DNA of 64,000 nt from Psammoneis japonica (GCA_008632985.1 QPGO01000012.1:682001-746000), one strand, 5' to 3'. Positions 1 through 64,000 are shown, counted from the first letter of the stretch. Program-made: numbers and translations. Notes: generated by a model not told the origin, from the letters alone.

Positions 1-1150
1 GTCAAAGGTGATGGCCCCGCAGCCTCGTGGCAGGTCAGCTGAGGCAGCACGAGTGGGATGCACAACGTTGACGTCGGCAAAAGCACGACCAAAGAGCTCA
101 CCCCAGCGGAGCCACCCCAACCAGAAAACAGTGTTGGCCAGTCCGGCCTGTGCAAGTTCTCAGCACAATGCGGGGGAGGTGGCCAAATGGAAGCGCCGGG
201 TCAAATCTTCGTCCAGCCACTTGACATGTCATTCTAGGAGAGCAACTGAGGGCTTAGATTCATTGCCGAGACGAGCCCCCATGCCGGCAGCGAGACGCGC
301 TCCAGGTCCAGGTGGGACCTCGCACTGCTGAACTGTGACATCGAGAGTTTTTTGAATCGCGTCGTATGTCGTGCACGTGCATTTCTACGTGATTTTGGCG
401 AAATTTTGCATGATTTGACAGTGTGTTTGTCAGGCTGTCCATTGAACAACTTTTAACATTTTTTTCTTCTGCGCCATTCTCGAGTGTCTTAAGAATGGCG
501 CAGGGCAGGCGCATTGTCCAAAACTTCGAGTGCAAACAGGGATAGATGCACTGCAAACTTGGCCATTTTTTTTATGTCAAAGACAAACACATCCATTGGC
601 CAGAGTACGAACTGCAGAGCTTGCATGCAGAATTCTACGGGGCAAATGTCACAAAAAGTCCCACCTGGGACTGGAACCCGTCGCGAACAGTTGAGCACTC
701 AGGTCGTCGGCAGTGCGGCACGGGATGTGTGACAAACGATTCTCATCCACAACTGCCGCCCCCGGATGGGAAATCATCACATCCCATGCGAAAAACTGAG
801 AGGCGGCGCTGCGGAGTTGGCGCACCGCACCAAAAGAGACCGGCTCACCTTTCTTTCCCGGGCGGAGGCTGCATTGCTCCTGTGCCCACAAGAGAGTGAC
901 CTCCGGTCCGTGAGGTGGTCGGGTGAGGGGTGTGGGGGTGAGGATTGGAACTTGAAATGTGCGCTCAAATTTCCGAAGAGAGTTGAGTTTTTGTTGATGC
1001 TGCACGTGAGTTCCCGCGGACCATGCATGTGCCACATCCAGGATCCACATGCGTTCCAGAGCCATGAGCCGCCAGTCCTTGGAGGATGTGAGCTCATGGT
1101 CTAGGACACTGCACACCGCACACTTTTCACAGACAAAGTGAGCCCATTGT
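1..1150 (-). pseudogene. tyrosine recombinase ORF of the DIRS element (N-terminal part), interrupted by the MITE at 294-682
   Basis: Removing 294-682 plus one GCGA TSD restores the frame: ...DDLSAQLFA|AGMGARLGNESKPSVALLE*HVKWLD. Its position downstream of RT/RH fits the DIRS YR. The catalytic C-terminus lies outside the window. Confidence 0.65.
294..682. mobile_element. MITE, 389 bp, with 5'-GACGCG..CCAG terminal inverted repeats, 4-bp TSD (GCGA) and a central hairpin
   Basis: Left end gacgcgctccaggtccaggtgggac; right end gtcccacctgggactggaacccgtc. GCGA at 290-293 and 683-686. Internal inverted repeat tgcgccattct...agaatggcgca (~470-502). Related element at 57337-57731. Confidence 0.85.
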
Positions 1151-1315
1151 CAGATCTGAGGCGGTGGGGTGAGCCCCCCAGCCTGCTTGCGCCGTGTCAT
1201 GAAAGGCGGGCCGGCCCTGAAACACCGCGGATGGTGACAAACACCACATGGTGAGCATGCAGTGCCCGAGTTGAACTCAAACCCATGGACAGCAAAGGAG
1301 CATGTCACCAGTGGG

Positions 1316-2418
1316 TCACGAAGCGAGGCTCCTTGGTGGCAACCCGCGCATTGTTGAAGCCTGTTGCTCATGCCACCGAACAACTCCTGGTGAGGCAAGT
1401 GACTCCAACCTGTTGGAGGTGACAGCAGGCACAACACGCTGGTGAGGTCCAAGGCACAAGATGACGATCAGAATGGGCAGTCGCGGGGGAGCAAGGAGGG
1501 GTGCCCACGGGTCCAGTGGGAAGAGAGTCGGCAGCTCCTGAACACTGCGGGATGACCCATGCCAGAAAGCCGGGATGACACGGGGAACGAACACCAATGC
1601 CGCCGCAATGAGTGGGCGCTTTGTGCAGGCGGTCAGGAGGAAGGTGAGAAGTTGCCTGGCAACCTCCGGGGGTGGGAACCACACACAGTGAGTTTGTCTG
1701 GGACATCTCGTGCATCCCACACAGCATGCCACGGTTCCAAGGCCCAGGTGGAATGTCCCAACAAAGAAGCAACGTGCACTGCTAGGGACGGATCAGGCAT
1801 CAAGGGTTCAAAGACGGCAGCGTTGAGTCGGTCCTGGTCCTCGAGCTCGTGTGGTGCACCAGCCCATGCACCTCGGCTCAGCCCATCGGTCATTTGCCGA
1901 ATCACAACAATGCCGGGGACATGGACCACCTGCAGGCTGCAACCCAGTTCGAGCTCAATGAGACAGATCTCTTCTATGAGCTCATGTAATCCAGGAGAAG
2001 AGGAGGACCTGGACGCAGCAATCCAACAGGTGACCTGGTTGTCCGTGAAGCAGAAGATGGTGACGCCGCGCACCTCGGTCGGGGGCATGCCCCGTAGATG
2101 TTGGAGGGTGACAAGAAGCGTCTTGAGTTCTTTCCAGTTCGACGAGAAACTGCACACCACAGGACTCCACTGGCTCATCCACATGCGCAGCGGCTCATCA
2201 CGCATCCCAAGTGTTCCGCCTGCCCCGGTGCCGCTGCCATTGCCCCAAGTTGGGAGCAACGCAGCAGACCGTGTGGACCTGGCCATGCCACCTTCCCCAC
2301 ACCGGAGGTGTGAGTTCCACCACTTGAGGTCTTGAATGACACCTGAAGTGAGTCGGGCACGGGTGCAGCATGGGTCCGCACCAGTTCCCAGCCGCGGTGG
2401 TCGCACCAGGGTGTGCAA
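1316..2418 (-). pseudogene. DIRS RNase H plus downstream methyltransferase-like remnant
   Basis: 'SSNWKELKTL...FCFTDNQVTCW...LQVVHVPG...TDGLSRG' matches DIRS RNase H. 'VWFPPPEVARQLL...ALVFVPR' matches the MT-like region known from DIRS pol. Confidence 0.75.
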
Positions 2419-2419
2419 A

Positions 2420-3560
2420 TTCCGCGTGAAGGTGTGACGAGTCGAAGCGGAGTGGCGTCCGAGAGTGATTCCAGGGTGCCCGACAACACAGACAGGGCGA
2501 GTCTAGAATGTTCCCAATCAGCGCCCAAGGACAGCACATGTTGAACCATGGCAAGCGCCCGCTCACGTTTGTCGAGGGGGATTCGCAGCATCGGAATTCC
2601 CGTCGTGTCGAAAATGAAGCCGCAACACTTGGCCACTTGCGAAGGAGGATGGCACTTGAGAGGGTGGCATGGCAAACCCACGTCAACGGCCACATCAAGG
2701 AAGCAACGCAAGGCGTCACAAGCAGTTTCACAGGCAGGACCGTGAACGGCGAAGTCGTCAACAAAGACCCAAATCTCAACCCCTGGGAGTCCGTCCCGCC
2801 TCATGAAGACCAGTCCGTGTCCAAGCTTAGGGTCGCACGTTTCCTCGCAAGTCAATTCTGACCACCAGCTGTTTAAGAGGGGCTTGTCACCAAAGCGCTC
2901 TGGGGCACATTCACGGAGCAGGCGCACAAAGGCGTTTCCGCATCTTCCCCCAAGAGCTGGACAGTTCCCTCCTCCCATGGGGAGGCCAAGCCACTCCAAC
3001 AATTCTTTGCTCAGGGGGTGAGTGAGGCCCAACCATGGCCGGTCGTCTGGGTGGGTGGTGAGCTGGTGAAAAAACTTGGAAGCGTCAACGACTGCAGTGC
3101 ATCCTCCTTGATGCATTTCATCTAGGATGTGGGTGACCCTTGGTGGGAAAACCGGGTCGTTTCCAACCACTGCATTCTGTCCACCACTTTTCATGTCAGC
3201 TGTCACCCGCCACTCGCCAGGCTGACCGGGCTTTGGCACACAGAACAGAGGCGTAGTTGCCAGGACCGTAGAAGGGTCCGGCACTGCCCCCAGAGCACCA
3301 ATGTCCATGAGTTCATCCACGAACTGCACCGCAATTCGCAACTGGTCTTCATCCATGGGGGCATTGGGTTTGACCTGTGACTCGGGGGGGGGGTCAGAAA
3401 ATTCATCCTGCTTCCGTTGCGGAGGTCATCCCAGTGCTCCGGAGGGAATTCCCACCAGAGGACCTGGAGATGATGCAAATCGGGGCCCTCGTCGTCACAG
3501 TTTGTCCGGTGTCGTTCCAGGGCGTTCAATCCTTGACTGATCATGTCCTCGTGATTCTCC
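2420..3560 (-). pseudogene. DIRS reverse transcriptase, frameshifted
   Basis: 'PLFCVPKPGQPGEWRVTAD', 'VVDASKFFHQL', 'LPMGGGNCP', 'WVFVDDFAVHG' and 'KCCGFIFDT' are RT motifs. Expected Tyr positions read as H or C. Confidence 0.9.
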
Positions 3561-3849
3561 TTGGGGTGCCGTTGAACGGAACACAGGAGATTCTCAATGC
3601 GTTGCAGGTGCCACGCCCCATCCCTGGACAAATCAGGAGGGGACCAGTGGAAAGGTTTCTGAACATCTGAGTCCTCGCCGTTGTCTGTCTTTGCCTGAGG
3701 AGTCGGATCCTCTGCAATGGGTTTGTCCAGTTTGAGAGCAGGCCACCGTTCCCCAGGTGGTTCCAGCGTGAAGCTCCTTCCAACGTACTCCCAATGGAAC
3801 ACACTGGCAGTGGAGTCCGCATCAACGCGCTCCGCAGGCACACCCCACT

Positions 3850-4620
3850 CCTTGGGAATGCCCAGTCCGCGCCCGAGCTCCTCCCTGGCAAGCCGTCGCA
3901 TTTTCTTGCTGGTGCGGATCCACGCTCCCGCTCTGGGTGGCATTGGGTCTGTGCCCGCATCGCAGACGTGGGCGTTTCGGGGCACGTTACGGCCCCTCCC
4001 CCGGATGAGCCCTTCTGGCGTCAGGAGGTTGCTCACAGATCGGGGTCACATCCCGTGTTGCACCGAGTCCCAAGTCCATCTTGCGGCGAACGGTCGAAGG
4101 ATGCGCGCCACCAGAAGTCGGCTCTGGTCAAGGGCGCCACTGACTTCAGTCGCCGCAATCCATCGGAATCGGGATTTGTGGCCCAGTCGCCCCCACCGAG
4201 TTCGAGCCGCCTTGCCGGCAGGACCGTTCTCCCATGTGATGGCATGGGCTTGCCAACTTTCTAGCACCACTTTTGGCCTTGCCTGACCCGCCGCCGATGA
4301 CACCAGTTCCTCCCACCGTTCGCTCTGGGGCAACCTGCGGGGTTTCCGAATGAAACCTCGTTCCACCACCAACAGATCCACGGGGTGTCGATTGAGCAGG
4401 GAGCTTTTAACTCGGGGCCCGGTGCAGGTCACTGCATCATCGCTGGCCGGGCAAACTGGGTCCCCTTGTCGTCGAATGCATGACTTTTGTTCTAGCCGCG
4501 GCCAGGCCGCACGCACAGTTTCCGCTCCGCACTCCATTGTTCCGCAGGTGGCGAGCCAGTCTAGAGCCGGCGCAGGTCTTGGCCCCATGTGCATTTCCAT
4601 GCCGTTGACAGTCGAGTCTT
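3850..4620 (-). pseudogene. degenerate C5-cytosine DNA methyltransferase-like domain at the N-terminus of DIRS pol
   Basis: Motif-like segments in the canonical order: 'VDLLVVERG' (IV-like, no PC), 'RPKVVLESW' (VI-like), 'LGHKSRFRWIAATEVSGALDQSRLLV' (VII/VIII-like), 'RRLAREELGRGLGIPKEW' (IX-like). Recognised by eye only. Confidence 0.55.
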
Positions 4621-4995
4621 GGAGCAAATGAGGTGTGCTCTGGGGCATCCCAGGAGGCTGTGCCGCTCTCGAATTGTCCAGGATGCCGGGGATCTCCTCC
4701 TCTTGGCATCCGGTTTCCATGTTGTCGTTGTCCAGGGCAGGGAGGCGATGGTTCCATCCGTGCCCGGCTTCCAGCAAGCCCTCCTCCAATGACATTCTGC
4801 ATGACCTTCCCACCGCGACTGCAGCAGCTTGCGCACCAAACACTTTCTTGCCTGGTGTGCAAGGGCATGGCAGGGAGTGAGTGATTGGGGGCCAGCAGAG
4901 TGCACACTGCACAACACGAGGAGGAGCGGGTCATTTTTGACAATTGGTTCTCGGGCCGGACAATCCACGCCCGGTTCTTGCTCCTCGGCAGGAGC

Positions 4996-7903
4996 TCATT
5001 CCATGTTTGGCTTCGACGTCCAGATTTCCGTGATGACAGTGTCCGCATTGCCGTCCGGGTCCGCCGTCAGGCGCCGACTAAGTTCGGCGCAGGCTTGTTT
5101 GACCTTCTCCACAGTGCAGTTGGTCTTGGTCACACCCTCGAGCAATTTTCGGGCCAGCGACGCCTGCAAGTCCTTCGCGGGGCAATTTGCCCTGACCTCC
5201 CCATGGAGGTTGGTTTCATGGCAAATCGCACACCTGCAGCATGCATGCAGACAAAAGGTCACTTTGTCACGCCCTTTGTGACATTCAAAGGCTGCAACAC
5301 GTCGCCGTGATGCATCAACTCTCATCAGTGGCTGCACATTGCACTCCTCCCCATGTGTCACGCATCCATGCGGCTCTTCACTAACGTGTGCTGACACTGC
5401 ACGGTTTTGGCGGAACAGTGTGGGTACGTGCGAAGGAACACACAGAACTGCACAGAGTTTTGCGCGTTCGACAGTGATCAACGTTGCTGCAGACAACTCC
5501 CACTCAGGGTTTCGAACCCCTGGCCTCCTGCCTGATGGTTGCGATGAACCACTCCGCTGTGAATTCACAATGCAGCATGCATGCAGACAAAAGGTTATTT
5601 TGTCATGCCCTTTGTGACATTTAAAGGCTGCAACACGTCGCCGTGATACATTGGCTCTTGTTGGCAGCTGTGTGTTGCACACCGCCATGAGACGGTGGTG
5701 CTTGCGCCTCCGCTCCCAGCGCCATTGACCGCAGTTCGAAGCTCGTGCATCTGCTCGAACAGTCCGTCGCAGATCTCCTCGTGTCGGAACCGATGCTCAT
5801 GGCAGGCATCGCGAAGACACACACAGGCCGTTAGGATGTGTGACCTGAAGTTGGGAGCCAGCACTTGATTTGGGCACAACCGCTCTGCGTGGTGTTTCAC
5901 AAGGCTCTCGGCCCAGCCGTCCTTGCACTCTGCTGCCCCATCTTTGGAATGCAATGACTCCCGAGCTGTGGTCAAGAGGGACAGACAACACTCGCAGGAC
6001 TTTTCCAGGACCCTGGGCAAGAGCCCACAATGGAGACAATCCTCAATGAACCGGGGAGAGTGCCGCCGCTCATGCAGAAAAGCGCGGAACCGGTTGTTCT
6101 GGGCCGGCCAGAGCTTCTCCCAGGCCTTGGACACTTCTTTGACAACACGCAGCAAATCCCCTCGGTTCTTGACAAGCCCCAGAGTGTTTGCCTGCTTGGT
6201 CTGCCAGGTGCTGTCATGTCTGGTCCGACCCCTCTCGAGAGCACCCAAATGCGTCAGCAGAGCCGACATGAGCTCCTCCTCACTCGGAGTGTTCTCAAAG
6301 AAGTCAGCACTGTGCATGCCTGGTGGAGCCGTCACATCCACACTCTGATTCAAGAACTCTGCTTGTTCCCTTGAGTCTAGTCCCGGAGGACACAGCAGGC
6401 GCTCCACAGCTGCCACGTTGGCCGTGGCTTCTCCAAAAATCTTGCTGGAATCACCAACCGACGGATCATTGCCCCAGTGCTCCGAATGCAAACGGTGTGT
6501 CTCTGCAAGCCCGTCTCCATCAGCACACAAAGCCGCCCCCCCCAGCAGGCGTCAACCCCGGAAGAGGGGGACAAGGGCCCGTGCCCTGCAGGTGGGGTGG
6601 GTTCCGGAGGTCCCCCAGCAGGAGGAGGTGGGGAAGGGTCCCTGGCCACCACAGGAGGCACCTCGCTCCACCACCGCATGGCATCAGCCCTGGTGTTGAA
6701 GGTCCGAACGTGTGAGAACCCCCCACTGAGAGCAAGGGCCATGTCAGCATCCAACGTGCACACGTGTCGCTCGTGAGGCTCCCGTTGAAATCCGCACCAG
6801 AGTTCCCGTGGACTCGGCGACCGGTTGTGCTGCCACTCCTCCACCTCTTGCTTAGTTGGAAATGTCAAGCGGAGGGCAGCTCCCAGTCAGATCCAGTGCA
6901 CCAGGTCCTCGTGCACAGTGCAGACACGTCTGGTGCCGCTCGGTTCACTCAACCCATGCCACAGATTCGGTTGGCCTGTGGGGTGCGACTGGGTCACTGA
7001 TGGCGGCGGCGAAGAAGTGGTTGGGGCAGCAGGCATTCCATGCCCTAGACCATGAAGTGATGAGGATCCATGATTGGTGGCCCTGGCATTTGGTGGGTCG
7101 CTCCGGACCCCATCCGGGCGTGTCGTGGTTGAAGGACGTTCAGAAGTGTCCCTCGCAGCTGTCTGCGACAAATTGTCAGCCAGAGGGGTGACCGGCATCA
7201 TCTGATGCTCAGTCGTGACAGGGGGGTCATGGGACTCAGTCCCGCCAAAGGTCACTTGGTGTGGGGCCCGTTCACCGTTGGCACCACGAATCTCACTGAG
7301 CTCCCGTCGGAGGTCATCATTGAATGCCTCCATTGCCTGTCGAAGGGGCGTCGTAGCCGTGAAGGAGTCCTCGTTCATTGTGGCAAAGGAGTCTTCATCC
7401 TGTTCGGGGTCATTCCTGAGCACGTCCGCTGCGCGAGTCATTTCTTCATCCTTGATTGCAGTGCGAGCATCTCGCTCTTCCCGGGTTAATCCCATGTGAA
7501 GGCGATCCAGTCGTCCATCGACCATCTCCCGGCAGCGCCCATTGTTGGGGAATTTCTTGCAGAAACGCGGTGGAGCCCGGTGGGCGGCTTCCAACGTCTT
7601 CCTGCTGTGTCCGCGGCATGTGCAGTCGGCTCACGAGCTGCCGCACATGCAGTGCACCGTTCATCCCCTCTCCTTTCTCGTCATGTGAACGTGACAGAGG
7701 TCGGGATGGGTCAGATCAACCAGATCCGACGGGGTCACTTCCTCATCGAGGAGATTGACGCCACCCACCGAAGAGGTCTCTGAGAGCTGTTCATCCACAA
7801 TGGTTCCATTGTCATCCGTGTCGGAGGTCACCGTCTCGGGGCCATCGACTGACACTCCAGCAGACGCAGAGGAGTCAGAAGGACTCCCGTCATTGCGTGC
7901 CAT
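4996..7903 (-). pseudogene. DIRS gag-like ORF1 with RNase H1 N-terminal (hybrid-binding/viroplasmin-like) repeats and a C-terminal Cys/His knuckle; interrupted by a TRIM
   Basis: Starts MARNDGSPSD at 7903. 'LWCGFQREP...VRTFNTRADAMRWW' and 'LWHGLSEPSG...FPTKQEVEEW' resemble the hybrid-binding domain. Removing 5235-5679 restores SWRC|AICHETNLH...NCP. Confidence 0.6.
5235..5679 (-). mobile_element. TRIM (miniature LTR retrotransposon), 445 bp, with two 109-bp LTRs and a 4-bp TSD (CACC)
   Basis: LTRs at 5235-5343 and 5571-5679, each TG...CA. PPT ggggaggag (minus strand, 5344-5352) abuts the 3' LTR. CACC at 5231-5234 and 5680-5683. Removal restores the gag frame. Confidence 0.9.
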
Positions 7904-10016
7904 GAAAATGCGACATCAGCCTGATGGAATGAGTGGTCCTACAAATGGACCCACCCCCCTGCAAAGAAAAATTTTTGCCTGTCCAGGCGTTGATTCGTTG
8001 ATGCTCCAAATTGTGAGATCTTGAACGTGGACTTGGAGGGACTCCACTTTTTGAGTTTCCCCTCTGATTCCTGGCATGGATCCCACTGGAGCCTTTGCAT
8101 TCCCATGATCATTTGCATTTGTGACCATTCGCATTAGATTCTGTTGCGGTGAAAGCTTGGTCCCCATTTTTCTGCTCAATGCCACGTTCGTCATCATCGG
8201 GGCGATCCGTCTTCAATTTCTTCGTCTGTCCGAGAACCCGTCAATCAGGGCAAGTGATGAGATTCTTTTGAGACAGTTGGAGTTGGAGGGAGGACGGATG
8301 ATGATTCGGGCGTCATCGGAACCGACCGGCGCACAAGCAGACAAGTGCACGTACAGCAACAATTTCAGCGGATCCAAGGGGGGTCATCCCCGCGTTCATC
8401 CTAAAATTTTGGTGGCGTTTGAACAAGAACATTCATTGGACATTGTTTTTGAACATAAAAATTGTTCTTTTTGTCACATCCGATCACCAATCGCGCACGG
8501 CAAACGAGAACATCAAGCACCACGATCGAAGCACAACGATGATGACAATCGTCAACATTTCTCAAAAACGCAGCATCACGCGCGCAAACTTTTCATGTGT
8601 GTGAGATCTTTGATGCACAAGGAACATAAAACAAGTGAGAGTTGGTGCACGGACTACCTCCGTTACAGACTCATGGCTTGCTGTTTTTCACCACGGTGAA
8701 GCACGGTGAAATTCAGGAAAAATCATGTGAAACACCAGCCATTCGGCTGAATTCGAGCTAAAAAAAGCAGCGATTGACCACCCTTGACATCCGGCCGAAA
8801 ACACAACCATCACTTTCTCAATGACTTTGGATGCTGTTGACAGCTTTGTGGCACTCTTCTTTTTGTGTTGCAGCTGCATCTTTTTTTTTAAGGCAATGGC
8901 TTCGTGTTGGCTGGCAGCGCCCTCCCATTCCAGAGCGTGGTGACTGGTGGAGTGCAAAGAAGTGTGTTTTTTTTTTTCATGTCTCTCATCTGTCGAGACA
9001 GGGGAGTGTGTGCTGTGAGATGTGTGGCAGGTGAGCCACTGGTGCCAATGATGGGGAGAGCTCAACTCATGGGTTGGGGGTGCTGGCAACAAGCTCCGTT
9101 TTCCGCCACCTCTGACAAAGGGCCCCTCTTGTCAAGTGGCAAAGAAACCCATCATCTTGCATCTCTCCCCATCTTGCTCTCAAAAGAGAAAGAGAGAGAG
9201 AGATCATTTGTTCACTCAAGAGAGAGAAAAACAAAAAGACAGCTCACAATCAGGGCACCAGAGACAGGGAGCAGATGCAGAGAGTGCCCTGGAGCTGGTG
9301 GAGCACGATGCAAGAACTCAAAAACCTTGAACCCAGCTGCTTTGACCACACATCTGCCCCCCCCCCCCCCCAACTTAGATCTGTTCAATGCAACAGCTCC
9401 TGCCACATTGAAAATTCATGGCAGCTGGCCACTGACAAAGCTGCTGCCACAAAAGTCTTGCAGCTCCTCCTCACTTTGGCCAGTGCTGCAGTGCTTTGCT
9501 GTTGCCACACAACTTGAACGAACACACCCAAGTTGCAGCTGTGCTGTGCTCAGCACCTTTGAAAATGACACACCTTGCAAAGAAGCCCCAAAACACATCT
9601 TTTTGAAAAAGGAGAAAATGACCTTATAAAGAAAAAGCAGCACCCCGCACAAAACATGCAAGAGTGTCGGCGTGTTTTCTCTGTGCAGTGCATTTTCTCA
9701 GCCCACTCACATCTGCTCACAAAAGAGATCTGCTGTGCAGCACATGTGTTGCAGTTTCTGGAAACTCATGGTGTGGTTGTGCATCATGCAAATGCTGCTG
9801 CTGCAACAAACATGTGGGTTGAGCTTGCCAGAGTGTTTGAGGTGTGCAAGAGCAAGGAAGCAATGCTGTGTTTTCTTTCAAGGATGTTCATTCCACCTGT
9901 GAAAGTTTTGTGTGTGTCAATTATTTGATGAAGAAAGAAACCAACAAAAAGAAACAAGAACAGAAAGAAAAATGGCGAAACTGCAAAAGGAATTGCTGGC
10001 GCATGAGAACAACCGA

Positions 10017-10190
10017 TCTTGGACAATTCAAAGCCCAACATTCCAAAGGAAACGTTGAATGATCTGCACAGCACTGTGCAGAATCATGGGGACACTGGAG
10101 TGGCAGCCAGCGCACAAGAACAATCAATCTTGGATGATTCAAAGACCAACATTCCAAAGGAAATGTTGAATGATCTGCATGGCACTGTGC
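10017..10190 (+). repeat. ~111-bp-period direct repeat (2 copies)
   Basis: atcttggacaattcaaagcccaacattccaaaggaaacgttgaatgatctgcacagcactgtgca vs atcttggatgattcaaagaccaacattccaaaggaaatgttgaatgatctgcatggcactgtgca. Differences are mostly CA/TG/CG swaps. Confidence 0.8.
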
Positions 10191-11136
10191 ACAAGGATGA
10201 GGATGAGACTGGATGTTGCCAGATGTCCCATGTTGCCTGATGTGTCAAGGTAGACTGTGGATCTTTGGGGTGCTCAAAGTTCAACCAGCTCATTTCTGAC
10301 TTGCCAAATGAGTTTGACATGAAAAGATGCAAAGGTTTTGTTCTCATCAAGAGCATGAGGCAAGAGGAAAGCTCACAAAAACAGCACCATGAATGACAAT
10401 GAAGCAAACTTGACTCTCCAGTTAGCGAGTTGATGCAGAAGGTCACACCATCTTGCTCTTGGCTGGGAGTCTTGGTTGTGATCTTGGCCACTGCTTCCAT
10501 TGGGATTGTCCTGCTAATGGCATCACCATTCCTTGTCATTTTCCTCAGGTTCCTCGCCATTTTCTTCCTTTTTTCGTCATTTGACATGCTCCAAAAGTTG
10601 TGCTGAATGCTCCCCGAATAAAGTTTTGGCACTGTCTCCGTCAATTGTCAAAAAGGCATCATGTTCAACATGTTTGGTGCTCTCATGATCACAAGTGCCC
10701 TGTTCCTTTTTGAATGGCACCCACCTGGGCTCAGCTGTTTGTGTTCGTGTCGCAGGGAACTGGGTCGTTGACAGACATCCAAGATGGGGAGCACACTCCC
10801 TTGTCTTGGACAGACTGGCACAGACAGCATTGAGAGATCCGATGATCTCTCTTTGCTCACTTTCTTTCTCATCTAGTGCATGATTGTCATCTGTCCTAGA
10901 CATCAGTTAGATCGTCCCGATGCCACTGGTCCGCAAGGTTGTGAGCAGCAGTGTGCTGTTCATCTTCCTCAATGCAACTGCATTGCAACATTCACCGTGT
11001 GGTTTGGCAATGTTTCCCCGTTGAAATTGTCGTCTTTGTCACAGCCATTTTTCTCACTTGATTTGTGATCATCACGACCACCGTAGACCACATGCCAGTG
11101 CTCCACACAGGATTTTGAATTTTTTCCTGCGCAACC

Positions 11137-14100
11137 ATGGTGCCGACTGACCAAACTTCTGTCGATTTGACCAAGATCAAGTCCATGCAAGTCAAATTCA
11201 GACCGCAAAATTGCTCACCTGATGCCCATTCTTACCTGAATGAACTTTGTTCCAACGCGACACCTGCTCCTGAAGATCTTCTGGACAGATTTGCTCCTCC
11301 AAGCCTCAAGCCCGACACAATCGCAACCATCCGTTGTGAGATTGTTCATGATCTAGTCATCCTCAGGCCACCTTGACTGAGGACCTCAAACGGATTGGAC
11401 CACTCATTGATGAAGCTCCTCTCTTTGTGGCTGCCCCTCAAGATGCTCCGATCCATCTGAACCACACCAATCTTCAGAAGGCCATGATCAAAGCAATCTC
11501 AGATGATCAAGACACCACAACAACATGTGTTGGGACTGTCAGTCTCTTCTTTCATCCTGGTTTTGAGAATTGTCTGTGTTGGGATGACATCTCTGATGCT
11601 CCACACCCACCACCAGTGTCTCCCCCAAGTTCTGTGTCTCAATCGACCGCCACTGCAGGCCTGACTCCTGAAGATTTTGCTGAGGCCTCAGCTGCTCATT
11701 CACCTGGTCCACAACAGTTTGAGCAAGCTGTGAGCAAAGCATTGAAGACCTCTGCGGCTTCTGTGCCACCTCCTGCACCTTCTGCCAAGACCACTGCTGC
11801 TGCGGTTTCTTCCTCAACAACCACTGGTGCCATGTGCACCTTCAATCTGAAAGGACTTCCAAAGGATGCACCAGCTCGCTGTCAATGCAAGGAAGCCGGG
11901 AGAGTGGTGTCAGGGAAGTCACTGGTGCCTTGCAAGTTGGGAAATCTTTGCTGTGAAGACGGTGCTGAATGCCTCATTCTTGCTGATGGTTCACTCTTTG
12001 TCCATCGTGTTGATTGGGTTGCCAAGTCATTTCTTTGTGATGCTTTGACATGTGATGACATTTCACCTTAAGGAATCCAAGCATGGCACACTGCAGCAAC
12101 CCAACAAGCCTCGGCCTGTGGCACACACATGCATCCCCCATGGTGGTTCATCAAGGATGGTGGAAACTGGGGTTTCACGTGTGGCAACAACCCAACTGAT
12201 GACCTGCCACTCCGCATGTGTGTGCCTCTTGACCACATGAAGCTTGCACTTTTTCAGCACATCCAGAAGGTTGGGGTTTTCCCAGCTGATTCCAAGCACA
12301 CAGACATTGTTCGCCAATGCCATGGAGATGGATGTGCTGCCCTCAAGATGACCCCATTTGACATTCTCCCAATCTGGACTAAGCAACCATGTGAGCTGAT
12401 CAAGAGCCACCCACACCAAAGCAATCTCACAATCCTCAGTTGCCATGCCCTGTTCAGGGATTTCCTCCAGCTGCGGGCCATCATTTCCAACGTTGATGCC
12501 TCTCTTGATGATCCTGGTGAGCCAGACATCTTTCTCAGCAACACTTGATGTGGAGAGCACCTGCATCGAAAGACAGTCAATGCCAGGGAAGACAAGAGCA
12601 AGCAACACAAATTCACTCAGCAGAAGATTGTTGAGACGATTGCCACGATCCTCAAGGAACCAGACAGTCCTGCTCTTCGTCTCAAGGATCCCCCCAAACA
12701 CCCTGCACAATGCCTCCATAACCAGAACCCGGCCAACCCTCCTCTTGCAGCTCCTCTTTGAGCCCTTGACTTGCTGCCCAAGGATGAGGTGCCAGACCCA
12801 CCTCCAATTGTTCCGGAAACTCCAATGGAAACTGCTCCCCCTCCTGTGGAAGAACCTGCGGAAACTGTGGAGTGCTTTGTAAATGAGCTTGCCACTGTGG
12901 AAATTCCTCCAGATGACAAGGCACAAGCACTGCACGGCATTTATGAGGCTTGCATCCACAGGATCAAGTCGTCACCCGCTGTTGCACAGACTCAACCATG
13001 TGTTGTCTGTGGTGACAGCCACTCATTCCATGAGTGCCCGGTCTTGAACAATGCCGAGTGTCTGCGTGCTCACCTCATCCAATTCTGCCAATTCCTTCAA
13101 TGTGACCAACGTGCCCGAGATGCACTCAAGGATGGCAAACCTAAAATGGATTTTTCTCAGGGCCATTGACTTGTTACATTCAGATGAACAATGCTGCCCA
13201 TCTCTTCCCAATCCAAAACTGCATGCAAGCGGGGTAGCTGCGAAAGAGGGTCTCACAGACTTGTTGCCTCCTGCTGAAATGCCTCTTTCACATGTCTCAT
13301 TTGCCGACCTTCTGTCAACCTCAACAAAGACTGGAGCTCCGGATCTCAAGACTGTTGCAGATGATGACCCTGACACCACTCATCAGGGGAGGGAAACACC
13401 TTCTCATGAACCCTCCATCAAAGCGAATGATGTCCCGCCAACCAGTGATCATGATCAAGATTTTGAGTGCATCGACATGGACACCAACCAACACCTGTCA
13501 CCTTTGAGTGCAGTGCACATCACCCCGATTTTTTCTCCTCCCAAAACACCTGTGGTTTTTGAATCTTTGACTGCTCCTGTCATCCCCATCAACCATGCAC
13601 CAAATTCTACCCCGGTCCGCTCTCTCAAAGTTGAGACTGAACGTCTCCTTTGGCATCAACGCCTTGGACATCCCAGCGATCACTGTTTGCACCATGCTCA
13701 CAAGCATGTCAAAGGGGTTCCTGAGTTCCGCCATGCCAACCCAGTTCTTGATGTTTGCCCCACGTGCATCCAGGCACAACAAGTCAAGACACCTGCCGGA
13801 CCCAACTCAACTCACAAGGCGACTCAACGCATCAAGGCCTCACTGTGGACTTTGCTTTTGCCGGTCAAGCGTCCAAGAATGAAGACCGCACGTCTGATTG
13901 TCTTGGCTGTGATGGTGAAACATGCTGGATCACCATCTATGATCATAAAACATGCATGCTTCATGGTGTTGCACGAGTCTCTGAGGCTAGTCCCCTCAAG
14001 TGGTTTTGCCAATTCCTGGATCGACACTCTCCAAATTGTCGTGACAAACATGCATTTATGGACCAGGGAGGGGAATTGTACAAGAACCCCAAAGTTTTTG

Positions 14101-17100
14101 ACCTCTTTCAACGAGAATTCCAGCATGACATTTGTCCATCTGGCACTGGCACCTCCAATCAATGTGGCCCTGTTGAACACTCACATTTGACTGTCGAAAA
14201 CGCAATTCGTGCAATTTTAATTGGTGCTGACCTCCCAATCAGATTCTGGCCCTGTGCTTTTCACCATTGCCTCCGCGTTGAGAATGCTGCTCCTGCGAAA
14301 GACCAAGATGCATCTCCTGTCACCCTTGCCACTGGAAAGGTCAAAGATTTTACTGCCCTGAAGACTTTTGGATGTCGAGCATGGGCCAAACGCTCTACAA
14401 AACGCTCTGCCACCTTTCGTTCCAACTCCAAGAAAGGTGCACTCCTTGGATGTCTCCCAAACACCCTGAAGAATGTTCTTTGGTGGGATCCAGAGACTGA
14501 CAAAGTCAAGACAGTCAAACATGTGCGACGTGACGAGGGCATGAATGACCTGTCTCTAGACCAACTTCCCCCGAATGCCACCCAGTTGCAATGCATGGAA
14601 AATGGCCAACCTTTTCCGGCTGAAACACAGGACACTGCTGTTCCAACATTTGCTTCTTCATCAAATCCTTTTGCCAAGACTGTCACTTGCACCATGAAAC
14701 GCCCTCCCCCATGGACCCTGCCTGTGGTTTTGTTTTCTCCCAGTGTCCTCTCTCATGGACCGTGTGTGTGTCTTGGAAATCAAGCAACGCAGTCCCGCGG
14801 CCTCCCCATTCTCTTCTCTCCATGCTGCTTGGAACAAGCTCATGGGTGCACATGTTGTCTCCATCAACAAGCATGAAGTCTTTATGCCACAAGATGCTGA
14901 AAAAGCACTTCTGCAGGTCTGCCATGATGAGGTCCCCATCTTTGAGATTGCTTTTGCGCCTGAACAATGTTTGGACCCTCGTGCTCTTAACAAGGCTTTT
15001 GAGGAAGTGGAGCCATTTGACCCTGATTCAATGGAGGACAATGCCCATGCACCGGAACTTGCTTTGGAGGATGTGCGATCCATCACAGCTGTTCTCTGTC
15101 CTGATGATGATTTCTCTGATGACGCTGTGCCGATGGATGTCTTCTGTGCTCATCTCCATGCTGTCAGTTCTCGTGCTGTCACTCCGGAAGAAGCTGCTCT
15201 TGATTGCGTCACCCGTGCCAAGCTCCACAAACTTGAAACATGGCCGGAATGGGAAGAAGGAGAGAAGTGCCAATTGGATCAATTTTGTGCACTTGGCACG
15301 CATGGTCCTCCACAACCACGTCCTCCTGGAGTGAATGTGTGCGTCTGCATTGGGGCCATGTGGCAAAACCAGATGGGCAGTGTTGCTCCAGACAATGTGG
15401 AGATGGACCCAAGTTGGCCATGCCAGCATTGCATGAACTGACCTCCACGCACTCTTCATGTGTGGAACGCTCGATCAAAAAGATGTTTTTTGCTCTCAGT
15501 GCTGCCATGTCTTATCGAACATGTGGTGGTGATGCCCGAGATGCATGTGCCCATTCTCCTGGTCCTTCACAATCAGTGTTTTTTGCCACTGATGATGCCT
15601 GTGCTGCATGGTGCGAAAGTCACTTTGGCAAGAAGGTGCCCCGCCACTGTGTCCTCCCCCTCAAGCATGCTCTCCAAGGCCATCCCAAGGCTGGTGTTCT
15701 GTGGGAGAAGCACATCAATTTGATCCCAGCTGGTGCAAAACTCCTCTTCCGCAACACTGCTCATGACAAGTGCATCTGCTTTGGTGAATGTGATGGTGTC
15801 AAGGTTCTGTCACTCCATCAAGTTGATGATTTTGCACTTCCTTGTCCTTCTGAGGTGGTTGCAAAGGAGATCTGTGATCATGTTGGAAAGGCTCTCCAGA
15901 TGGAGAATGAGGGTGCTCCCCCGTTCAAGCATCTGGGCCCGGCTGCTGAGTTCAATGGCGTTGGAGTCATTCAGAATGATGATTCGATCACAATCAACAT
16001 TGCCAGCCATCTTGACCACGCTTTCAAGACCCATGGATGGGACACTCCCGCTGCAAATAAAACCAAGACTGATTTCAAGGCTGTGCCTGTGCCGGTTGAT
16101 TGCACCCCTGAGCTGTGTGCCGCTGAAGGTCCCAAGGAGGGTGCCCCTGAATGTTGTGCCCTCTCTGACTCTCATGGCTTCTCCTGCCGCTCTGTCTTGG
16201 GTGAATTGGTCTTTGCTTGTTCGTGCTGTTGCTTGGATGTTGGCTGTCCCATTGTTGCTTTGTCCAAGTTCTCCAAGACTCCGGCTGACGTCCACTGTGA
16301 TTCCCTCAAACGTGTGGCTGAGGCTCGGTCTACAGGTGAACCGCGCCGGATCGGATCGCCGGATCGGATCGCGTCAGAATTCCGTTAGTCGACAGGTGGA
16401 ACCGGATCGGATCGCGGATCGGATTCGACATTTTGATGAGTCGCAAAACGACGTAAGTTTCAAGATTCCAAATTCTCAAGAACAACAAAGCACTGAAATA
16501 GCGAACAACAGCCAGAGAGAGTGTGGCCATGATGCTTCACATCTTGTCATAACGAGACGATATGACGACAGAACTATGCTGTTATTACTGCTTTACATAC
16601 TTACTTGACCGCATCATTGAGCATCATTGTCACTCAGTGTTTGCAGCACGCTAAGGAAGAAAAAGCTATCACTTTTGCAATTCAGAAACTGACGCTATGT
16701 TTTCGTATTGAAATTTCGAATTACATAATAAATACTTGTTATTTTGCTTATTCAATGTTTCTCCAACAAATCTTTACGGCATTATCGGTTTGACAAGCTA
16801 TTCTATTGCCATACGACCTTTTTCATCTCCATTTCAAGCATGGGAAGAGTAAGGCTGTAATGCTAAGGAAGTTCTGTGCCCTTATGGCTGAATGTTATGC
16901 CGCCCTGTATCATAATCGTGTGATGTTGCGCCATTGTCGTGATGACGGCACGGAATCTTCCAAATTCGATCCGACATCCGATCCGAGATGGCGGATCAGT
17001 CCCACGAAGGCCACGGATCGACTTTTTGACTCGATGGACTAACATTTTAATGGGTTATGAAGGAGTCGATCCGGCGATCCGATCCGGCTCGGTTCACCTG

Positions 17101-17670
17101 TAGACCGAGCCTGAGTGTCTGCGACATGCCAAACATTGGGGTTTGACATGTGAGAAGACTGAGCGTGATCCGGGCCTGCCTCCCCGTGATTTTGAGTGGC
17201 TTGAAGACGATCCATCCCTTCCTGAGTTCCCCCGTGCTGATGATCCTTTTGGATGCAGCACATGCCAATGAACTGTGGCGTCGCTGATCCACTGCTGGAT
17301 GTGCACATGTCCTTGCTGGTGCTACAATTGATTGTCGTTGCCACACACAGACCATCACAGCTGCCAGCTCCACCAAGGCTGAATTTCTCGCGGCTGTCAC
17401 TGGCGCCAAGGCAGACTTTGCACCTCCAAATGGTCCTCGAAGAGCTGGGTTTTCTTCAACGTGATCTTTCAACGTGATCTCACTCCCTTGCACATTGATG
17501 ATTCCTCCGCCATCCAGATGATCAACAACAAGGTGCCTGCAGAGTGCTTCCGCCACATTGACATTCAACATTTTGCAATCCAAGACTGGCGCGACGCGGG
17601 GAAATTGTCACAAGACATGTCCCGGGCGTCATTGACCCTGCTGATGAGCTGACCAAGGCTGTGGGTTGAG
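11137..17670 (+). pseudogene. Copia gag-pol polyprotein, frameshifted; protease region not recognised and possibly deleted
   Basis: ORF pieces 11137-13169 (gag), 13600-14876 (pre-integrase/integrase), 15240-16321 (RT) and 17112-17670 (RNase H). Nearly free of Tyr (DKCICFG, SCRSVLGEL, FWPCAFHH). Confidence 0.9.
16322..17111. mobile_element. PIF/Harbinger-like non-autonomous element (MITE), 790 bp, ~45-bp TIRs, 3-bp TSD (TGA)
   Basis: TIR ggctcggtctacaggtgaaccg(c/a)gccggatcggatcgccggatcg at both ends with one mismatch. TGA at 16319-16321 and 17112-17114. Subterminal ggatc repeats. Removal restores Copia KRVAE|CLRHAKHWGL. Confidence 0.9.
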
Positions 17671-17995
17671 TGCTTCATTCCCGCTGGCCCGTCATTTGAT
17701 GGGACACTGCCATTGATTGCCGTTGTGTTTTGTGTGTCTCTTTGTTTTTGCTGTTCTGGCCCTCATTTTTTTCTCGGATTGTCTCCTTTCTTTCTTGATG
17801 AGCTTTTGCATTGCTCATCAGGGGAGGGTGACAGACATCCAAGATGGGGAGCACACTCCCTTGTCTTGGACAGACTGGCATGGACAGCATTGAGAGATCT
17901 GATGATCTCTCTTTTCTCACTTTCTTTCTCATCTGGCACACGATTGTCATCTGTCCCAGACATCAGTTAGATTGTCCCGATGCTGCCAGTCAGCA

Positions 17996-30910: not shown

Positions 30911-31179
30911 GTTGGTGCTCTGCGTTGCGCAGCACGAAAAAAAAAACGCGCGCGTGTCGCTGTGGTAAACAAAGAGTTAAAGACTGACTCCTGTCAGAAG
31001 TGTGTTTTGACCAGTCGAAAGCTTGTTGCGACGCTTCTCTTTTTGTGCATGTTGTGTAAATCGCCATTGTGTGTGTGAATTCCAACCGAGATTTGACATT
31101 CACAAAGTGCCAGCGCGGATCGTATTCATATCTTATACGTCATCTTCTCGCTTCGCGTGCTCTGGGAGAGGGTTACCGC

Positions 31180-32232: not shown

Positions 32233-32249
32233 AAGAATGAAAACGGTTT

Positions 32250-36816: not shown

Positions 36817-36934
36817 CATTTAGCTGTCTTTGTATGGAAGTGGAAATGACACTTAACGATTTACACTAACCATTTAGCTTTCTTTGTGTCGAAGTGGAAA
36901 TGACACTTAACGATTTACACTAACCATTTAGCTT
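36817..36934 (+). repeat. 54-bp tandem repeat, 2.2 copies
   Basis: catttagct.tctttgt.t.gaagtggaaatgacacttaacgatttacactaac at 36817 and 36871, partial copy at 36925. Confidence 0.9.
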
Positions 36935-37030
36935 ACTTTGGCTCGAAGTCAGACAAGGAGATTGGGCTATGGGCTTATCGTTAACCAGCCACGAGCATGA
37001 AATCTTTACCGAGACTTCCAACTTGTTGTT

Positions 37031-47166: not shown

Positions 47167-47169
47167 GCG

Positions 47170-57336: not shown

Positions 57337-57731
57337 GACGCGTTCCAGCCCTAGGTGGGAGCTCGTAGCACTGACGTGTGACAACAATAATTTTTATCAT
57401 CCGTCGTATGTTTCGTACGTAGATTTCTACGTGTGATATTAAAAAAAAATTGTCCAGACTCGCTGTTTTGCGAAGCCCCATACGTTTTATATAACAAATT
57501 TATAGAAACAATAATGCGCCAGTTACATTCTTGAATGACTGAAGAATGTAACTGGCTGAGTAAAAAATGATGTACTTCAATCATGTGCGAGTTTGTGCGT
57601 TCGCAAAATTGCCTCATTTTCTGTTGGCGATCATTGACATTTTAATTACCGTATAATTTACTACGGAGCTCGCACGTAGAAGTCTACGGGCCCAATGTCA
57701 CTCGGATTCCCACCTACGTCTGGAACGCGTC
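57337..57731. mobile_element. MITE, 395 bp, with GACGCGTTCCAG TIRs, 4-bp TSD (CACA) and a perfect 15-bp central hairpin; TpA-intact
   Basis: Ends gacgcgttccagccctaggtggga and tcccacctacgtctggaacgcgtc. CACA at 57333-57336 and 57732-57735. Hairpin gccagttacattctt-N9-aagaatgtaactggc (~57518-57556). Confidence 0.9.
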
Positions 57732-62086: not shown

Positions 62087-63184
62087 ATGAAAACCACCTA
62101 CAATCTCTTTGTCCTCTCCACCCTCCTTGGGATCGGAGCTCATGGCGTTACTGCCAACGTAGAGCCAACATGTGGTGAACCTCCATACAACAAACGAAAG
62201 GACAGGGCCGTTTTTCTCTGGCGAAAGTGCTTTTCTTCCGAGTGGTACTTGGAAGCCGCTGGAGGTAAACTACCTGTGTCAGTCACTGCCAACTTGGTGG
62301 CTGATGCATCCGACATTGCTATCAACAAAAAGGCCGTCGGGGTTGAGTTGAACAAGGACTTCACAATCAATGTCCCAAAGAAAAAGAAAGATGGCTTCAA
62401 ATTCATCGTCAAGGATGATGGGAGTGGATGTTTGACTGTCAAGACGCCTGAAGACATCCCCCTGTATGTTGGTAAGAACCGCGTGGCGCTTCCTACCAAA
62501 TCCATCAGTGTCCCCGGCTTGAGGCCATGCGATGGACCGATTCTCGAATACCGTTTTGATACTTCTCGCACCCTTTTCAAGGACACGGGAGCAAATGGAT
62601 GGGACGGCACAACTGCACCAGGAAGAGGCAGGATATCATACACCACTTTGGGTCATTCCAGGTATGGAGCCAGCTTTGATGGGAGGAACGATCAGATGGT
62701 CATCCAAGAAGCCAAAGACCTAAGCATGGACAAGTATACCATGATGGCATGGGTTCGCTACTCTCAAACTACAAATGCTGAATTTGCCTATGTGATTGCT
62801 CTAAAAACGTCAGCCATTTGGCTCACCATCAACAAGGAATCCCGCACTGTCAGATTCGGGGGCTTTTTCGGCGGTTGTGCTCGGAAGAACCTTACGTTGC
62901 TAAAAGGTACCAAACCAGTTCCAACAGAGTCCTGGACCCACATTGCTGCAACCAACGATGGCGATTCATTGAAGGTCTATATCAATGGAGAACTGGACTC
63001 AGAAATTGATCTCGTAACTAAAGGAACCTATTGTTCCAACAAGGCACCGCTTAACATTGGCTCCTATTTGGGAGAGAAGCAAGCGGAAGATAGAAATTTC
63101 TTTCGTGGATACATGGACACTTTCCGCGTCTACGATAAGGATCTTGGTCAAGACGAAATCCGTTCCGAGATGTTCCGTCACTAG
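62087..63184 (+). CDS. secreted protein with a C-terminal LamG-like/concanavalin A jelly-roll domain
   Basis: Signal peptide MKTTYNLFVLSTLLGIGAHG; 'GASFDG', 'YTMMAWV', 'WTHIAATNDGDSLKVYING', 'LNIG...FFRGYMDTFRVYDKDL'. Confidence 0.88.
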   Translation: MKTTYNLFVLSTLLGIGAHGVTANVEPTCGEPPYNKRKDRAVFLWRKCFSSEWYLEAAGGKLPVSVTANLVADASDIAINKKAVGVELNKDFTINVPKKKKDGFKFIVKDDGSGCLTVKTPEDIPLYVGKNRVALPTKSISVPGLRPCDGPILEYRFDTSRTLFKDTGANGWDGTTAPGRGRISYTTLGHSRYGASFDGRNDQMVIQEAKDLSMDKYTMMAWVRYSQTTNAEFAYVIALKTSAIWLTINKESRTVRFGGFFGGCARKNLTLLKGTKPVPTESWTHIAATNDGDSLKVYINGELDSEIDLVTKGTYCSNKAPLNIGSYLGEKQAEDRNFFRGYMDTFRVYDKDLGQDEIRSEMFRH

Positions 63185-64000
63185 TTTGTGAAGAGGTTGA
63201 TCCGAGCAATGTGAAAGCGGCAGACAAGCCTACCTCAGTCGATCCCGAAGCTTGAAGACCCCCATGTGTTTCGCTAGTTGTTAAGTCTTTAGTAAACCTT
63301 TCTTTTGTCATCACCTGAAGCTACCATCTTACCGGCATTGTACAAGTATCCTCATTCTTATGGGGTGGCGTGTGGCGCACCGGGTAACGACACACTGACA
63401 GTCTAACTAGCCCCTGTGAAGGTTTTGAGTTTTCGGCGCTTCAGCAATTTTGCGTGTCTCCAAGTTCTCGCTGTTTGATGCATGAACCATTCCAAAGTCC
63501 AAAGCACGAGGTCTGACTTGGTTCAGTTTAGACACTGCCACAAATCTGCTGAAAGTGAGTCAGTTCTACACTGTGACTGTGGCATGTTTGAAGTGTGCAC
63601 AAGCAGAGTGTTGCGTGTGTGGCAGTCGGGACTTGGTTGGGCACACTTGATGCAGCTCCAACAAATCAACGGTTGGTTGCACCATTTGTTTGTCATGCAT
63701 TCTCTGTTCACACTGTCATTGCAAGCAAGTCCCTTGCAGTGTTGGTTGTTCTGGCACATTGTCAAAGAACAATCACCTTTCTCTCGTCATGATTGAAAAA
63801 GAAGAGGTGTGACCAAAGCAACAAGAGTTGCAAAAAAATCACCAAAAGGCCTGTTCCAGCCCCAGGTGATCTGCAATCCATCATGCAAGAGGCCAATTTT
63901 CTGCACAGTTTAGCACATTAAACTCCTTCAAATTTGTGATGGTTCTGAAAATCAAAAAGTGAGCGCACATGAAAAAAAAAGTTTTTGTGTGCACTCACCT

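Follow-up and report, generated by a model that had tools for sequence, protein, structure and literature searches.

Probable context-specific A:T-to-G:C hypermutation of integrated mobile DNA in a diatom: a near-saturated TpA footprint in a 64-kb window

In ascomycete fungi, repeat-induced point mutation (RIP) changes C to T mainly at CpA, creating TpA and lowering G+C content, and it depends on duplication. A 2026 bioRxiv preprint describes hypermutation of integrated viral DNA in Bigelowiella natans that proceeds from A:T to G:C and at TpA only (10.64898/2026.01.13.699255). Among 15 mutation-accumulation lines, 231 of the 302 nuclear point mutations fell within two integrated viral regions; 230 of these 231 were A-to-G or T-to-C, all on TpA by the authors' account, and they arose in 11 of the 15 lines at a rate near 6e-7 per site and generation. 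Reverse-transcriptase (RT) and DDE domains were enriched among the TpA-depleted coding sequences, and the authors propose an ADAT2-like DNA adenine deaminase (10.64898/2026.01.13.699255). The present analysis concerns a 64,000-nucleotide stretch of Psammoneis japonica (GCA_008632985.1, QPGO01000012.1:682001-746000; hereafter the window, with positions counted from its first letter), in which retroelement relics and decayed gene copies have lost most of their TpA. The integrated transposable-element (TE) DNA of this diatom has probably been under context-specific A:T-to-G:C hypermutation, TpA becoming TpG or CpA on either strand. By analogy, the process appears to be of the same kind as that measured in the B. 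natans lines; the window provides a second, far more saturated case of this recently described kind, in another lineage. A first-pass annotation of this DNA, made from its sequence, knew of no published description; the preprint, which measured the same process in B. natans, is one, and it is the only description that a literature search found, no diatom paper with this signature being encountered.

Extent and direction of TpA loss

All blocks, islands and counts given here belong to this one window, whose G+C content is 49%. A two-state hidden Markov model (HMM) fitted to TpA positions delimits nine TA-poor segments, 43,442 nucleotides in total, and eight TA-normal segments totalling 20,558 nucleotides (Table 1); its borders lie within about 0-300 bases of those drawn for TpA-poor blocks by the first-pass annotation. 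The observed/expected ratio (O/E) of TpA is 0.25 over the whole window; by 1 kb it is 0.01-0.19 for the blocks and 0.39-0.70 for most windows within gene islands, the gene islands themselves having values of 0.51-0.61. At the gene-island rate about 1,743 TpA would be expected in the blocks, which have 196, and the Poisson probability of this prints as 0; about 89% of the expected TpA is lost overall, and 98% in some blocks.

Per kb, TA-poor DNA contains 4.5 TA, 30.4 CG, 104.6 TG and 99.6 CA, and TA-normal DNA 40.5 TA, 51.3 CG, 73.6 TG and 76.4 CA, in agreement with the initial description of blocks rich in TG and CA between islands of normal TA. The sum of these four pyrimidine-purine (YpR) dinucleotides is 239 per kb in TA-poor and 242 in TA-normal DNA, the deficits of TA (-36) and CG (-21) being offset by gains of TG (+31) and CA (+23). 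Such a balance is as expected of transitions within this class, with TA and CG lost and TG and CA gained. Among the 16 dinucleotides only TA and, separately, CG are depleted in TA-poor DNA (O/E of AA 1.26 vs 1.17 in TA-normal DNA, of AT 0.85 vs 0.93), and G+C is 0.45-0.54 in the blocks as against 0.39-0.47 in the TA-normal segments. Near absence of TAA and TAG in the blocks opens long frames in all six reading frames; the 64 kb contain 90 open reading frames (ORFs) of at least 150 amino acids, many of which overlap on both strands.

The encoded proteins carry the same mark. Tyrosine is kept at none of 22 positions in three unrelated TE ORFs, which instead read 10 His, 5 Cys, 4 Trp and 3 other residues, and the claim of the first-pass annotation that expected Tyr codons read as Cys or His is borne out at 15 of the 22. 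In the degraded RT ORF, compared with 47 homologues, the seven conserved Tyr columns are 3 Cys, 2 His and 2 Trp; of all 212 conserved columns, this ORF keeps 153. The Copia integrase ORF (13752-14873), for which columns were compared with 35 of the 150 listed homologues, has 2 His, 1 Cys and 1 Trp at its four conserved Tyr columns and Ala at four of six conserved Val columns (GTA to GCA), with 106 of 144 conserved columns kept overall. Similarly, the ORF at 18992-19981 (minus strand) is 58% identical to its sole homologue, the metagenome protein P0360, and keeps none of the latter's 11 aligned Tyr (6 His, 1 Cys, 4 other), as counted by eye from one pairwise alignment. Among single-step mismatches at conserved columns, 9 of 35 (RT) and 8 of 28 (Copia) are readable as TA loss by codon reversion; little weight is given to these fractions, as the procedure ranks TA first and uses, for its "ancestor", a consensus built from distant relatives. 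Frameshifts, CpG decay and divergence at further residues are also present in the elements. Pfam searches (ORFs of at least 110 amino acids at 0.001, and 150 of the 341 block ORFs of at least 70 amino acids at E <= 0.05, the latter adding only a weak RVT_2) gave, in the TE DNA of the window, RVT_1 (2178-3425), Copia-type domains (13048-16385) and no other match. The label DIRS that had been attached to one element class was not confirmed, a full-length relative (L002) showing RVT_1 only.

The polarity of change can also be read from two decayed copies of functional genes in the window. A decayed copy of the 5' region of a DDX41-like helicase gene (45369-45628, against 34016-34258 in the gene) has 0 TpA where the gene has 9, and a decayed copy of part of a Laminin_G_3 gene (56305-56571, against 62816-63077) has 1 where the gene has 10. 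A TA of the gene can be aligned to the decayed copy at 13 sites, which in the copy are CA (7) or TG (6) and at no site TA, and the reverse case does not occur; likewise, 19 of 22 CpG of the genes are TG or CA in the copies. With the gene taken as ancestor, A has become G at 14 of 34 TpA, 12 of 100 ApA, 7 of 64 CpA and 5 of 64 GpA. A polarised spectrum, which the first-pass annotation had proposed for TE copies and LTR pairs, thus gives in these two gene copies an excess of TA to TG/CA over A-to-G change in other contexts. Changes other than A-to-G and T-to-C are also present, as expected in old relics. Taken together, the loss of Tyr, the gene copies and the rates by context give the polarity as TA to TG/CA, and directional change is supported.

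Both strands are involved. The ratio of TG to CA is 0.87-1.38 per block and both Tyr-to-His and Tyr-to-Cys changes occur in the TE ORFs, so that both strands must be affected, as had been proposed; this argues against editing of sense-strand RNA, and the earlier judgement that RNA editing before reverse transcription fits poorly stands. Pairs of repeats within TA-poor DNA (886 aligned nucleotides) differ by 17 CA<->TG doubles, 19 CG<->TG/CA, 9 TA<->TG/CA, 14 other transitions and 20 transversions, and TA-normal pairs (526 nucleotides) have 3 doubles and 42 transversions; for doubles vs transversions between the two kinds of pair, Fisher p = 5e-5. In a CA<->TG double, a single ancestral YpR (TA or CG) has changed separately in each copy, on one strand in the first and on the other strand in the second. 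The 168-nucleotide direct repeats around the Copia ORFs can be read as the long terminal repeats (LTRs) of one insertion; the five-base sequences flanking them on the outside are two transitions apart and otherwise identical. The two LTRs differ at 15 of 168 nucleotides, 13 in YpR classes (among them 4 CA<->TG doubles, 3 CG<->TG and 2 TA<->TG/CA) and 2 by transversion. Since 13 of the 15 mismatches are of YpR type, TpA and CpG decay must be fast relative to background change. A mutator at the DNA level, as first suggested, is supported by the differences between LTRs of one Copia insertion, by the involvement of both strands and by the confinement of the blocks within sharp edges.

Base calls, targeted DNA and neighbouring features

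Four public runs (X1-X4) exist for one sample; X3 and X4 are tiny and cover high-depth stretches only. X1 covers all 30 bins of 28001-48000 at a word depth of about 40-64 in single-copy parts, and its contigs equal the window, with 0 other letters, over TA-poor 28001-28828, 43563-44090 and 44373-45620 (828, 528 and 1,248 nucleotides). This agreement excludes consensus and polishing artefacts and very likely base-calling artefacts as well. The first-pass annotation had asked for confirmation by independent reads; the raw-read contigs of X1 reproduce TG and CA, and that their base calls are independent of the assembly is likely, though unproven. Ten differences separate one X1 contig from 37725-38974, at single-copy depth; two of them are TA<->TG, one is CA<->TG and two are CpG transitions. 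The few TA<->TG and CA<->TG differences from X1 contigs, among the 40 of 310 difference rows displayed, give the one hint here of an elevated de novo rate. At three sites in high-depth stretches, 36637 and 36977 among them, TA in the window is mostly, by depth, CA or TG in the other copies; the reverse case, CA or TG in the window and TA in other copies, is absent among the rows displayed.

The TpA loss is confined to TE-derived sequence, in that TE ORFs and decayed gene copies lie in the TA-poor segments, whose edges pass into the islands without a gradient. These edges are sharp, with 56 TpA per kb in the first 100 nucleotides of islands and 37-42 further in. The CpG O/E is 0.18-0.58 in nine of nine TA-poor segments and 0.80-1.50 in eight of eight TA-normal segments. 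Cytosine methylation on silenced TEs is known in diatoms, and CpG decay is its usual footprint. With the CpG decay of the window taken as such a footprint, the TpA process would mark the same silenced DNA.

Two insertions resembling miniature inverted-repeat transposable elements (MITE-like) stand within TA-poor DNA with TpA intact, the first with 48 TpA per kb and a CpG O/E of 1.38, the second with 80 TpA per kb and a CpG O/E of 1.5. Youth, short length or a lack of recognition would account for their escape. Both are non-autonomous elements with terminal inverted repeats, of about 800 and 395 bases, inserted into decayed retroelements, and they may belong to currently mobile DNA-transposon families. 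Copy number, likewise, does not seem to decide by itself, since a TA-normal stretch of high depth in X1 (36374-37265, about 4,200-6,700) coexists with TA-poor DNA at single-copy depth (37339-38672), contig depth being a poor measure of copy number. Given these stretches and the MITE-like insertions, the term "repeat-targeted" in the sense of RIP, used in the first-pass annotation, is not shown, and "silenced mobile DNA" fits better than "repeat-induced". In the same region, X1 contigs lead from 37008/37010 back into 34393/34395 across 4-6 letters, which suggests a unit of about 2.6 kb (34393-37010) arranged in tandem or otherwise head-to-tail elsewhere in the genome; it consists of TA-free 34395-36373 and TA-normal 36374-37010, with a sharp border between them. 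Further, the bin 38673-39339 has an X1 word depth of about 41,000, roughly 700 times single-copy; no tandem repeat, tRNA or Rfam match was seen in it, and contigs of X3 and X4 cover 39046-39100.

The surviving TpA point to a preferred target of 5'-TAY-3', equivalent to 5'-RTA-3' from the thymine side. A model in which the two adenines of a TpA, one on each strand, survive independently, with a probability set by the 3' neighbour, gives a per-strand survival of 0.62 for TAA, 0.51 for TAG, 0.19 for TAC and 0.12 for TAT when the islands serve as reference; with 53 related loci as reference it is 0.81, 0.53, 0.18 and 0.16, respectively. The likelihood-ratio chi-square for the effect of the 3' neighbour is 137 (islands) and 159 (related loci), with 3 degrees of freedom.

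These related loci, which come from metagenomes and encode relatives of the RT element, all have normal TpA (O/E 0.40-0.87 in 53 of 53), on which ground an intrinsically low TpA content of the TE family was rejected. Compared with them, block 1-8000 has 5.0 vs 32.4 TA per kb (-27) and 59.6 vs 68.4 CG per kb (-9), showing that TpA loss can far outrun CpG decay. Tyr-free homologues do exist in metagenome assemblies of ENA and JGI, two further sources, and these sequences may or may not derive from the same species as the window. Among the 150 listed Copia homologue representatives, 10 are Tyr-free, all of them ENA metagenome contigs of 0.8-1.8 kb, and of their 31 conserved-Tyr cells 15 hold Cys, 11 His, 2 Trp and 3 other residues. 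The RT homologue P0125 (ENA) keeps 163 of 186 other conserved columns and has 4 His and 4 Cys at all eight Tyr columns that it covers.

The best relatives of the DDX41-like DEAD-box helicase are solely diatom, at identities of up to 79%, and the named matches include Nitzschia, Fistulifera, Fragilariopsis, Chaetoceros and Thalassiosira; the window is therefore diatom nuclear DNA, and its host, judged from sequence, a diatom (stramenopile). TA-normal islands also contain an ORF with a Laminin_G_3 (concanavalin-like) domain (62081-63181) and a weak match to protein kinase (40835-41851). Rfam and tRNA scans of the window gave no match. Heterozygosity or strain difference is patchy, some islands diverging from their X1 contigs by about 0.2-1.7% and others by 0%. 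Run X2, listed as "DNA?", covers chiefly gene islands, and in the island at 28998-30824 its contigs omit stretches of 107-140 bases at six places, bounded by GT..AG or CT..AC; with its intron-like gaps and island coverage, X2 behaves as an RNA library, and the genes of this island are therefore expressed and have short introns. X2 depth is absent on most TA-poor bins, a blank that says nothing on silencing. The same island has internal repeats (29857-30160 vs 30604-30907, 77%) at an X1 depth of about 330-560.

Table 1. Positions of segments, elements and genes in the window
Feature	Position	Strand	Remarks
TA-poor segment, degraded retroelements	1..16330		HMM; TpA O/E 0.10, CpG O/E 0.58
Degraded reverse-transcriptase ORF (RVT_1)	2178..3425	-	Pfam; no Tyr
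Copia 5' LTR, putative	10769..10936	+	left flank GTCGT
Copia internal region	10937..17828	+	Pfam domains between LTRs
gag_pre-integrs	13048-14187	+	Pfam; Copia internal region
Integrase/SH3	13752-14873	+	Pfam; Copia internal region
RVT_2, weak	15237-16385	+	Pfam at E <= 0.05; Copia internal region
MITE-like insertion, later	16318..17115		49-base terminal inverted repeats (96% alike); CTGAG at both ends
TA-poor segment	17102..28734		HMM; TpA O/E 0.07, CpG O/E 0.52
Copia 3' LTR, putative	17829..17996	+	preceded by purine tract; right flank ATCGC
Two in-frame ORFs parted by one TGA, no known family	17993..19981	-	ORF scan
TA-normal gene island	28735..34336		HMM; TpA O/E 0.52, CpG O/E 0.99
Intact single-exon DDX41-like DEAD-box helicase gene	ORF 32253-34625	-	in gene island from 28735
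TA-poor segment	34337..36373		5 TpA in ~2 kb, CpG O/E 0.18; X1 word depth ~2,900-7,100
TA-normal stretch	36374..37265		57 TpA per kb; X1 depth ~4,200-6,700; 54-base tandem repeat
TA-poor segment	37266..39763		HMM; mostly single-copy depth in X1
TA-poor segment	42110..45730		HMM; holds decayed DDX41-like gene copy
TA-poor segment	49741..51231		HMM; TpA O/E 0.02
TA-poor segment	55988..57351		HMM; holds decayed Laminin_G_3 gene copy
Second MITE-like insertion	57337..57731		~28-base terminal inverted repeats; CACA at both ends
TA-poor segment	57716..61591		HMM; TpA O/E 0.06
TA-poor segment, ends at window end	63409..64000		HMM

Proposed mechanism and competing explanations

In the mechanism proposed here, a mutator would act on chromosomal DNA after integration, its target would be silenced chromatin and not repeats as such, and the change would be carried out by a base-modifying enzyme. 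ADATs naturally act on A34, which follows U33, and the substrate of TadA is UACG; base J in kinetoplastids is a thymine modification of TET/JBP type, and oxidised thymines can mispair with G. The leading candidate would be deamination of adenine preceded by T, and an adenine deaminase resembling ADAT2 or TadA is a possible agent; deamination of both A and C in DNA has been reported for amphioxus ADAT2 (PMC10354150). Second, the thymine of TpA might be modified by a TET/JBP-type enzyme to 5-hydroxymethyluracil (5hmU) or its derivatives and then mispair with G; in dinoflagellates such an enzyme makes 5hmU, which is enriched on repeats and silences TEs (PMC11572971). TpA is self-complementary, and consequently the signature cannot separate adenine-side from thymine-side chemistry. 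Under either chemistry, near saturation would have been reached in old TE relics while adjacent genes were spared, and the process would outrun the CpG decay located in the same DNA.

Several points weigh against this explanation. The evidence is the sequence of one 64-kb window, with candidate enzymes only, and action after integration is not proven. Both the sharp block edges, which show no gradient, and the two unaffected MITE-like insertions within TA-poor DNA also fit editing around the time of insertion. The high-depth stretch at 36374-37265 has normal TpA and adjoins TA-poor DNA. The 53 environmental relatives of the RT element all lack TA depletion, and the process is therefore not general among carriers of that element. 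The survivors behind the TAY preference could include newly created TpA. Finally, X1 is possibly the assembly's own data, its library type not being on record.

Unlikely, though the best placed of the alternatives, is a passive by-product of heterochromatin, arising through error-prone or mismatch-biased repair at methylated DNA, such as the WA-to-WG changes of Pol eta, or through exclusion of repair. The marking of the same segments by TpA and CpG loss (nine of nine vs none of eight) would follow readily, and the enzymes of the preferred mechanism remain candidates. However, the WA motif of Pol eta predicts a loss of ApA, which is not depleted in TA-poor DNA, and A-to-G change at ApA (12/100), CpA (7/64) and GpA (5/64), as against 14/34 at TpA, speaks against this polymerase, a candidate of the first-pass annotation that is now disfavoured; its motif is also unlike the preference seen here. 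Specificity for one dinucleotide, combined with an effect of the 3' neighbour, resembles substrate recognition by an enzyme, and in block 1-8000 a near-complete loss of TpA goes with only a mild reduction of CpG.

It is quite improbable that each element was instead hypermutated as extrachromosomal DNA or cDNA before or at integration and arrived dead, by an APOBEC-like logic applied to A-to-G change at TpA, the chromosome never being a target. Block edges that coincide with element edges, without leakage into flanks, and the unaffected MITE-like insertions would be natural outcomes of such editing, and since double-stranded cDNA already has two LTRs, differences between them need no chromosomal action. 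Nevertheless, a loss of 89-98% of targets far exceeds that of one-round editing systems as we know them, the two strands are affected about equally, and decayed fragments of host genes are TA-free too. Further, a block at single-copy depth differs from its X1 contig by TA<->TG and CA<->TG, and in B. natans the signature arose de novo, in culture, in DNA that had long been integrated (10.64898/2026.01.13.699255).

Far less probable again is an artefact of base calling or assembly, in which a modified base at the TpA of TEs is misread as G or C and the true sequence is TA. Enrichment of 5hmU in dinoflagellate repeats (PMC11572971) lends the idea some substance, as does the unrecorded library type of X1. 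Against it stand the exact agreement of the raw-read contigs over 828, 528 and 1,248 nucleotides at a depth of about 40-64, sister copies that have CA where others have TG, the frameshifts, CpG decay and other divergence of the elements, and the Tyr-free homologues in ENA and JGI metagenome assemblies. An equally slight chance attaches to ADAR-like A-to-I editing of double-stranded TE RNA, fixed by reverse transcription. ADARs favour a 5' U, and most annotated blocks are retroelements, but their 5' preference of U about equal to A differs from the T-only rule seen here, and they favour a 3' G, whereas in the window adenines before G or A are least affected (survival 0.51 and 0.62, against 0.12 before T and 0.19 before C); in addition, both DNA strands are affected, the two LTRs of the Copia insertion differ and, to our knowledge, ADARs are confined to animals. 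GC-biased gene conversion was rejected on reasoning, as it is not dinucleotide-specific and would preserve CpG.

Implications and comparison with known systems

No natural enzyme is known to us that converts A:T to G:C in the DNA of chromosomes. That the TpA rule holds in a further lineage, and there to saturation, raises the likelihood of a dedicated mechanism, and diatoms, which are transformable, are a tractable group in which to find it. Hypermutation of this kind would add an A:T-to-G:C counterpart of RIP and APOBEC to the mutational genome defences, linked to methylated, silenced chromatin, and it explains one way in which algal genomes gain GC and acquire extreme dinucleotide mosaics. 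As a more tentative proposal, which we hold as somewhat short of an even chance, diatoms and chlorarachniophytes may share an old, enzyme-driven defence by DNA base editing that converts TAY to TGY or CAY in silenced chromosomal mobile DNA until no Tyr codon and few TAA or TAG remain. If that were true, a natural chromosomal A:T editor would be widespread in the SAR (stramenopile, alveolate and rhizarian) supergroup, a mirror image of fungal RIP. In practical terms, TA-free DNA gives rise to spurious Tyr-free, Cys- and His-rich "hypothetical proteins" in gene predictions and databases.

Among known systems, RIP resembles the process in the window in being a transition hypermutation that inactivates mobile DNA, spares genes and leaves a mosaic of compositional domains. 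The direction is opposite, however, for RIP makes TpA and lowers GC, whereas here TpA is destroyed (O/E 0.07 in blocks) and GC is higher; and RIP depends on duplication, whereas, as far as contig depth is a guide, high-copy TA-normal and single-copy TA-poor DNA coexist in the window. On either strand, deamination of 5-methylcytosine at CpG likewise turns YpR into TpG or CpA, and these blocks show it too, but it cannot remove TpA, and block 1-8000 has lost 27 TA vs 9 CG per kb. ADAT2 and TadA share with the signature a target A preceded by T or U, and TAC is one of the two best contexts here, so that both the U33-A34 rule and UAC are compatible with the TAY preference; their natural substrates, by contrast, are tRNA loops and not chromosomal double-stranded DNA. 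TET/JBP-type modification is similar in acting on T at the DNA level, in being enriched on repeats and in silencing TEs, and mispairing of the modified T with G would give T-to-C change at TpA; it differs in that the available part of the dinoflagellate report gives no mutational consequence of 5hmU (PMC11572971).

The closest system is that of B. natans, as described in the main text of the preprint (10.64898/2026.01.13.699255). The two cases differ in host, a chlorarachniophyte (rhizarian) there and a diatom (stramenopile) here; in targets, giant-virus and virophage insertions there and retroelement relics and decayed gene copies here; in degree, with a Rho of 0.45 for the nucleocytoplasmic large DNA virus (NCLDV) region as against near saturation (TpA O/E 0.02-0.10); and in the kind of evidence, mutations measured in real time as against a footprint read from sequence. 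The co-localisation with CpG decay, the preference for TAY and the escape of MITE-like insertions are added here, the main text of the preprint using none of the words "CpG", "context", "flanking" or "trinucleotide" and not mentioning diatoms. Common to both are the change of TpA to TpG or CpA on either strand, its confinement to foreign or mobile DNA beside normally mutating genes, and the same long-term footprint of 1-kb windows depleted in TpA and enriched in CpA and TpG, the 5%-tail thresholds of the B. natans study being passed by 31 of the 64 one-kb windows analysed here.

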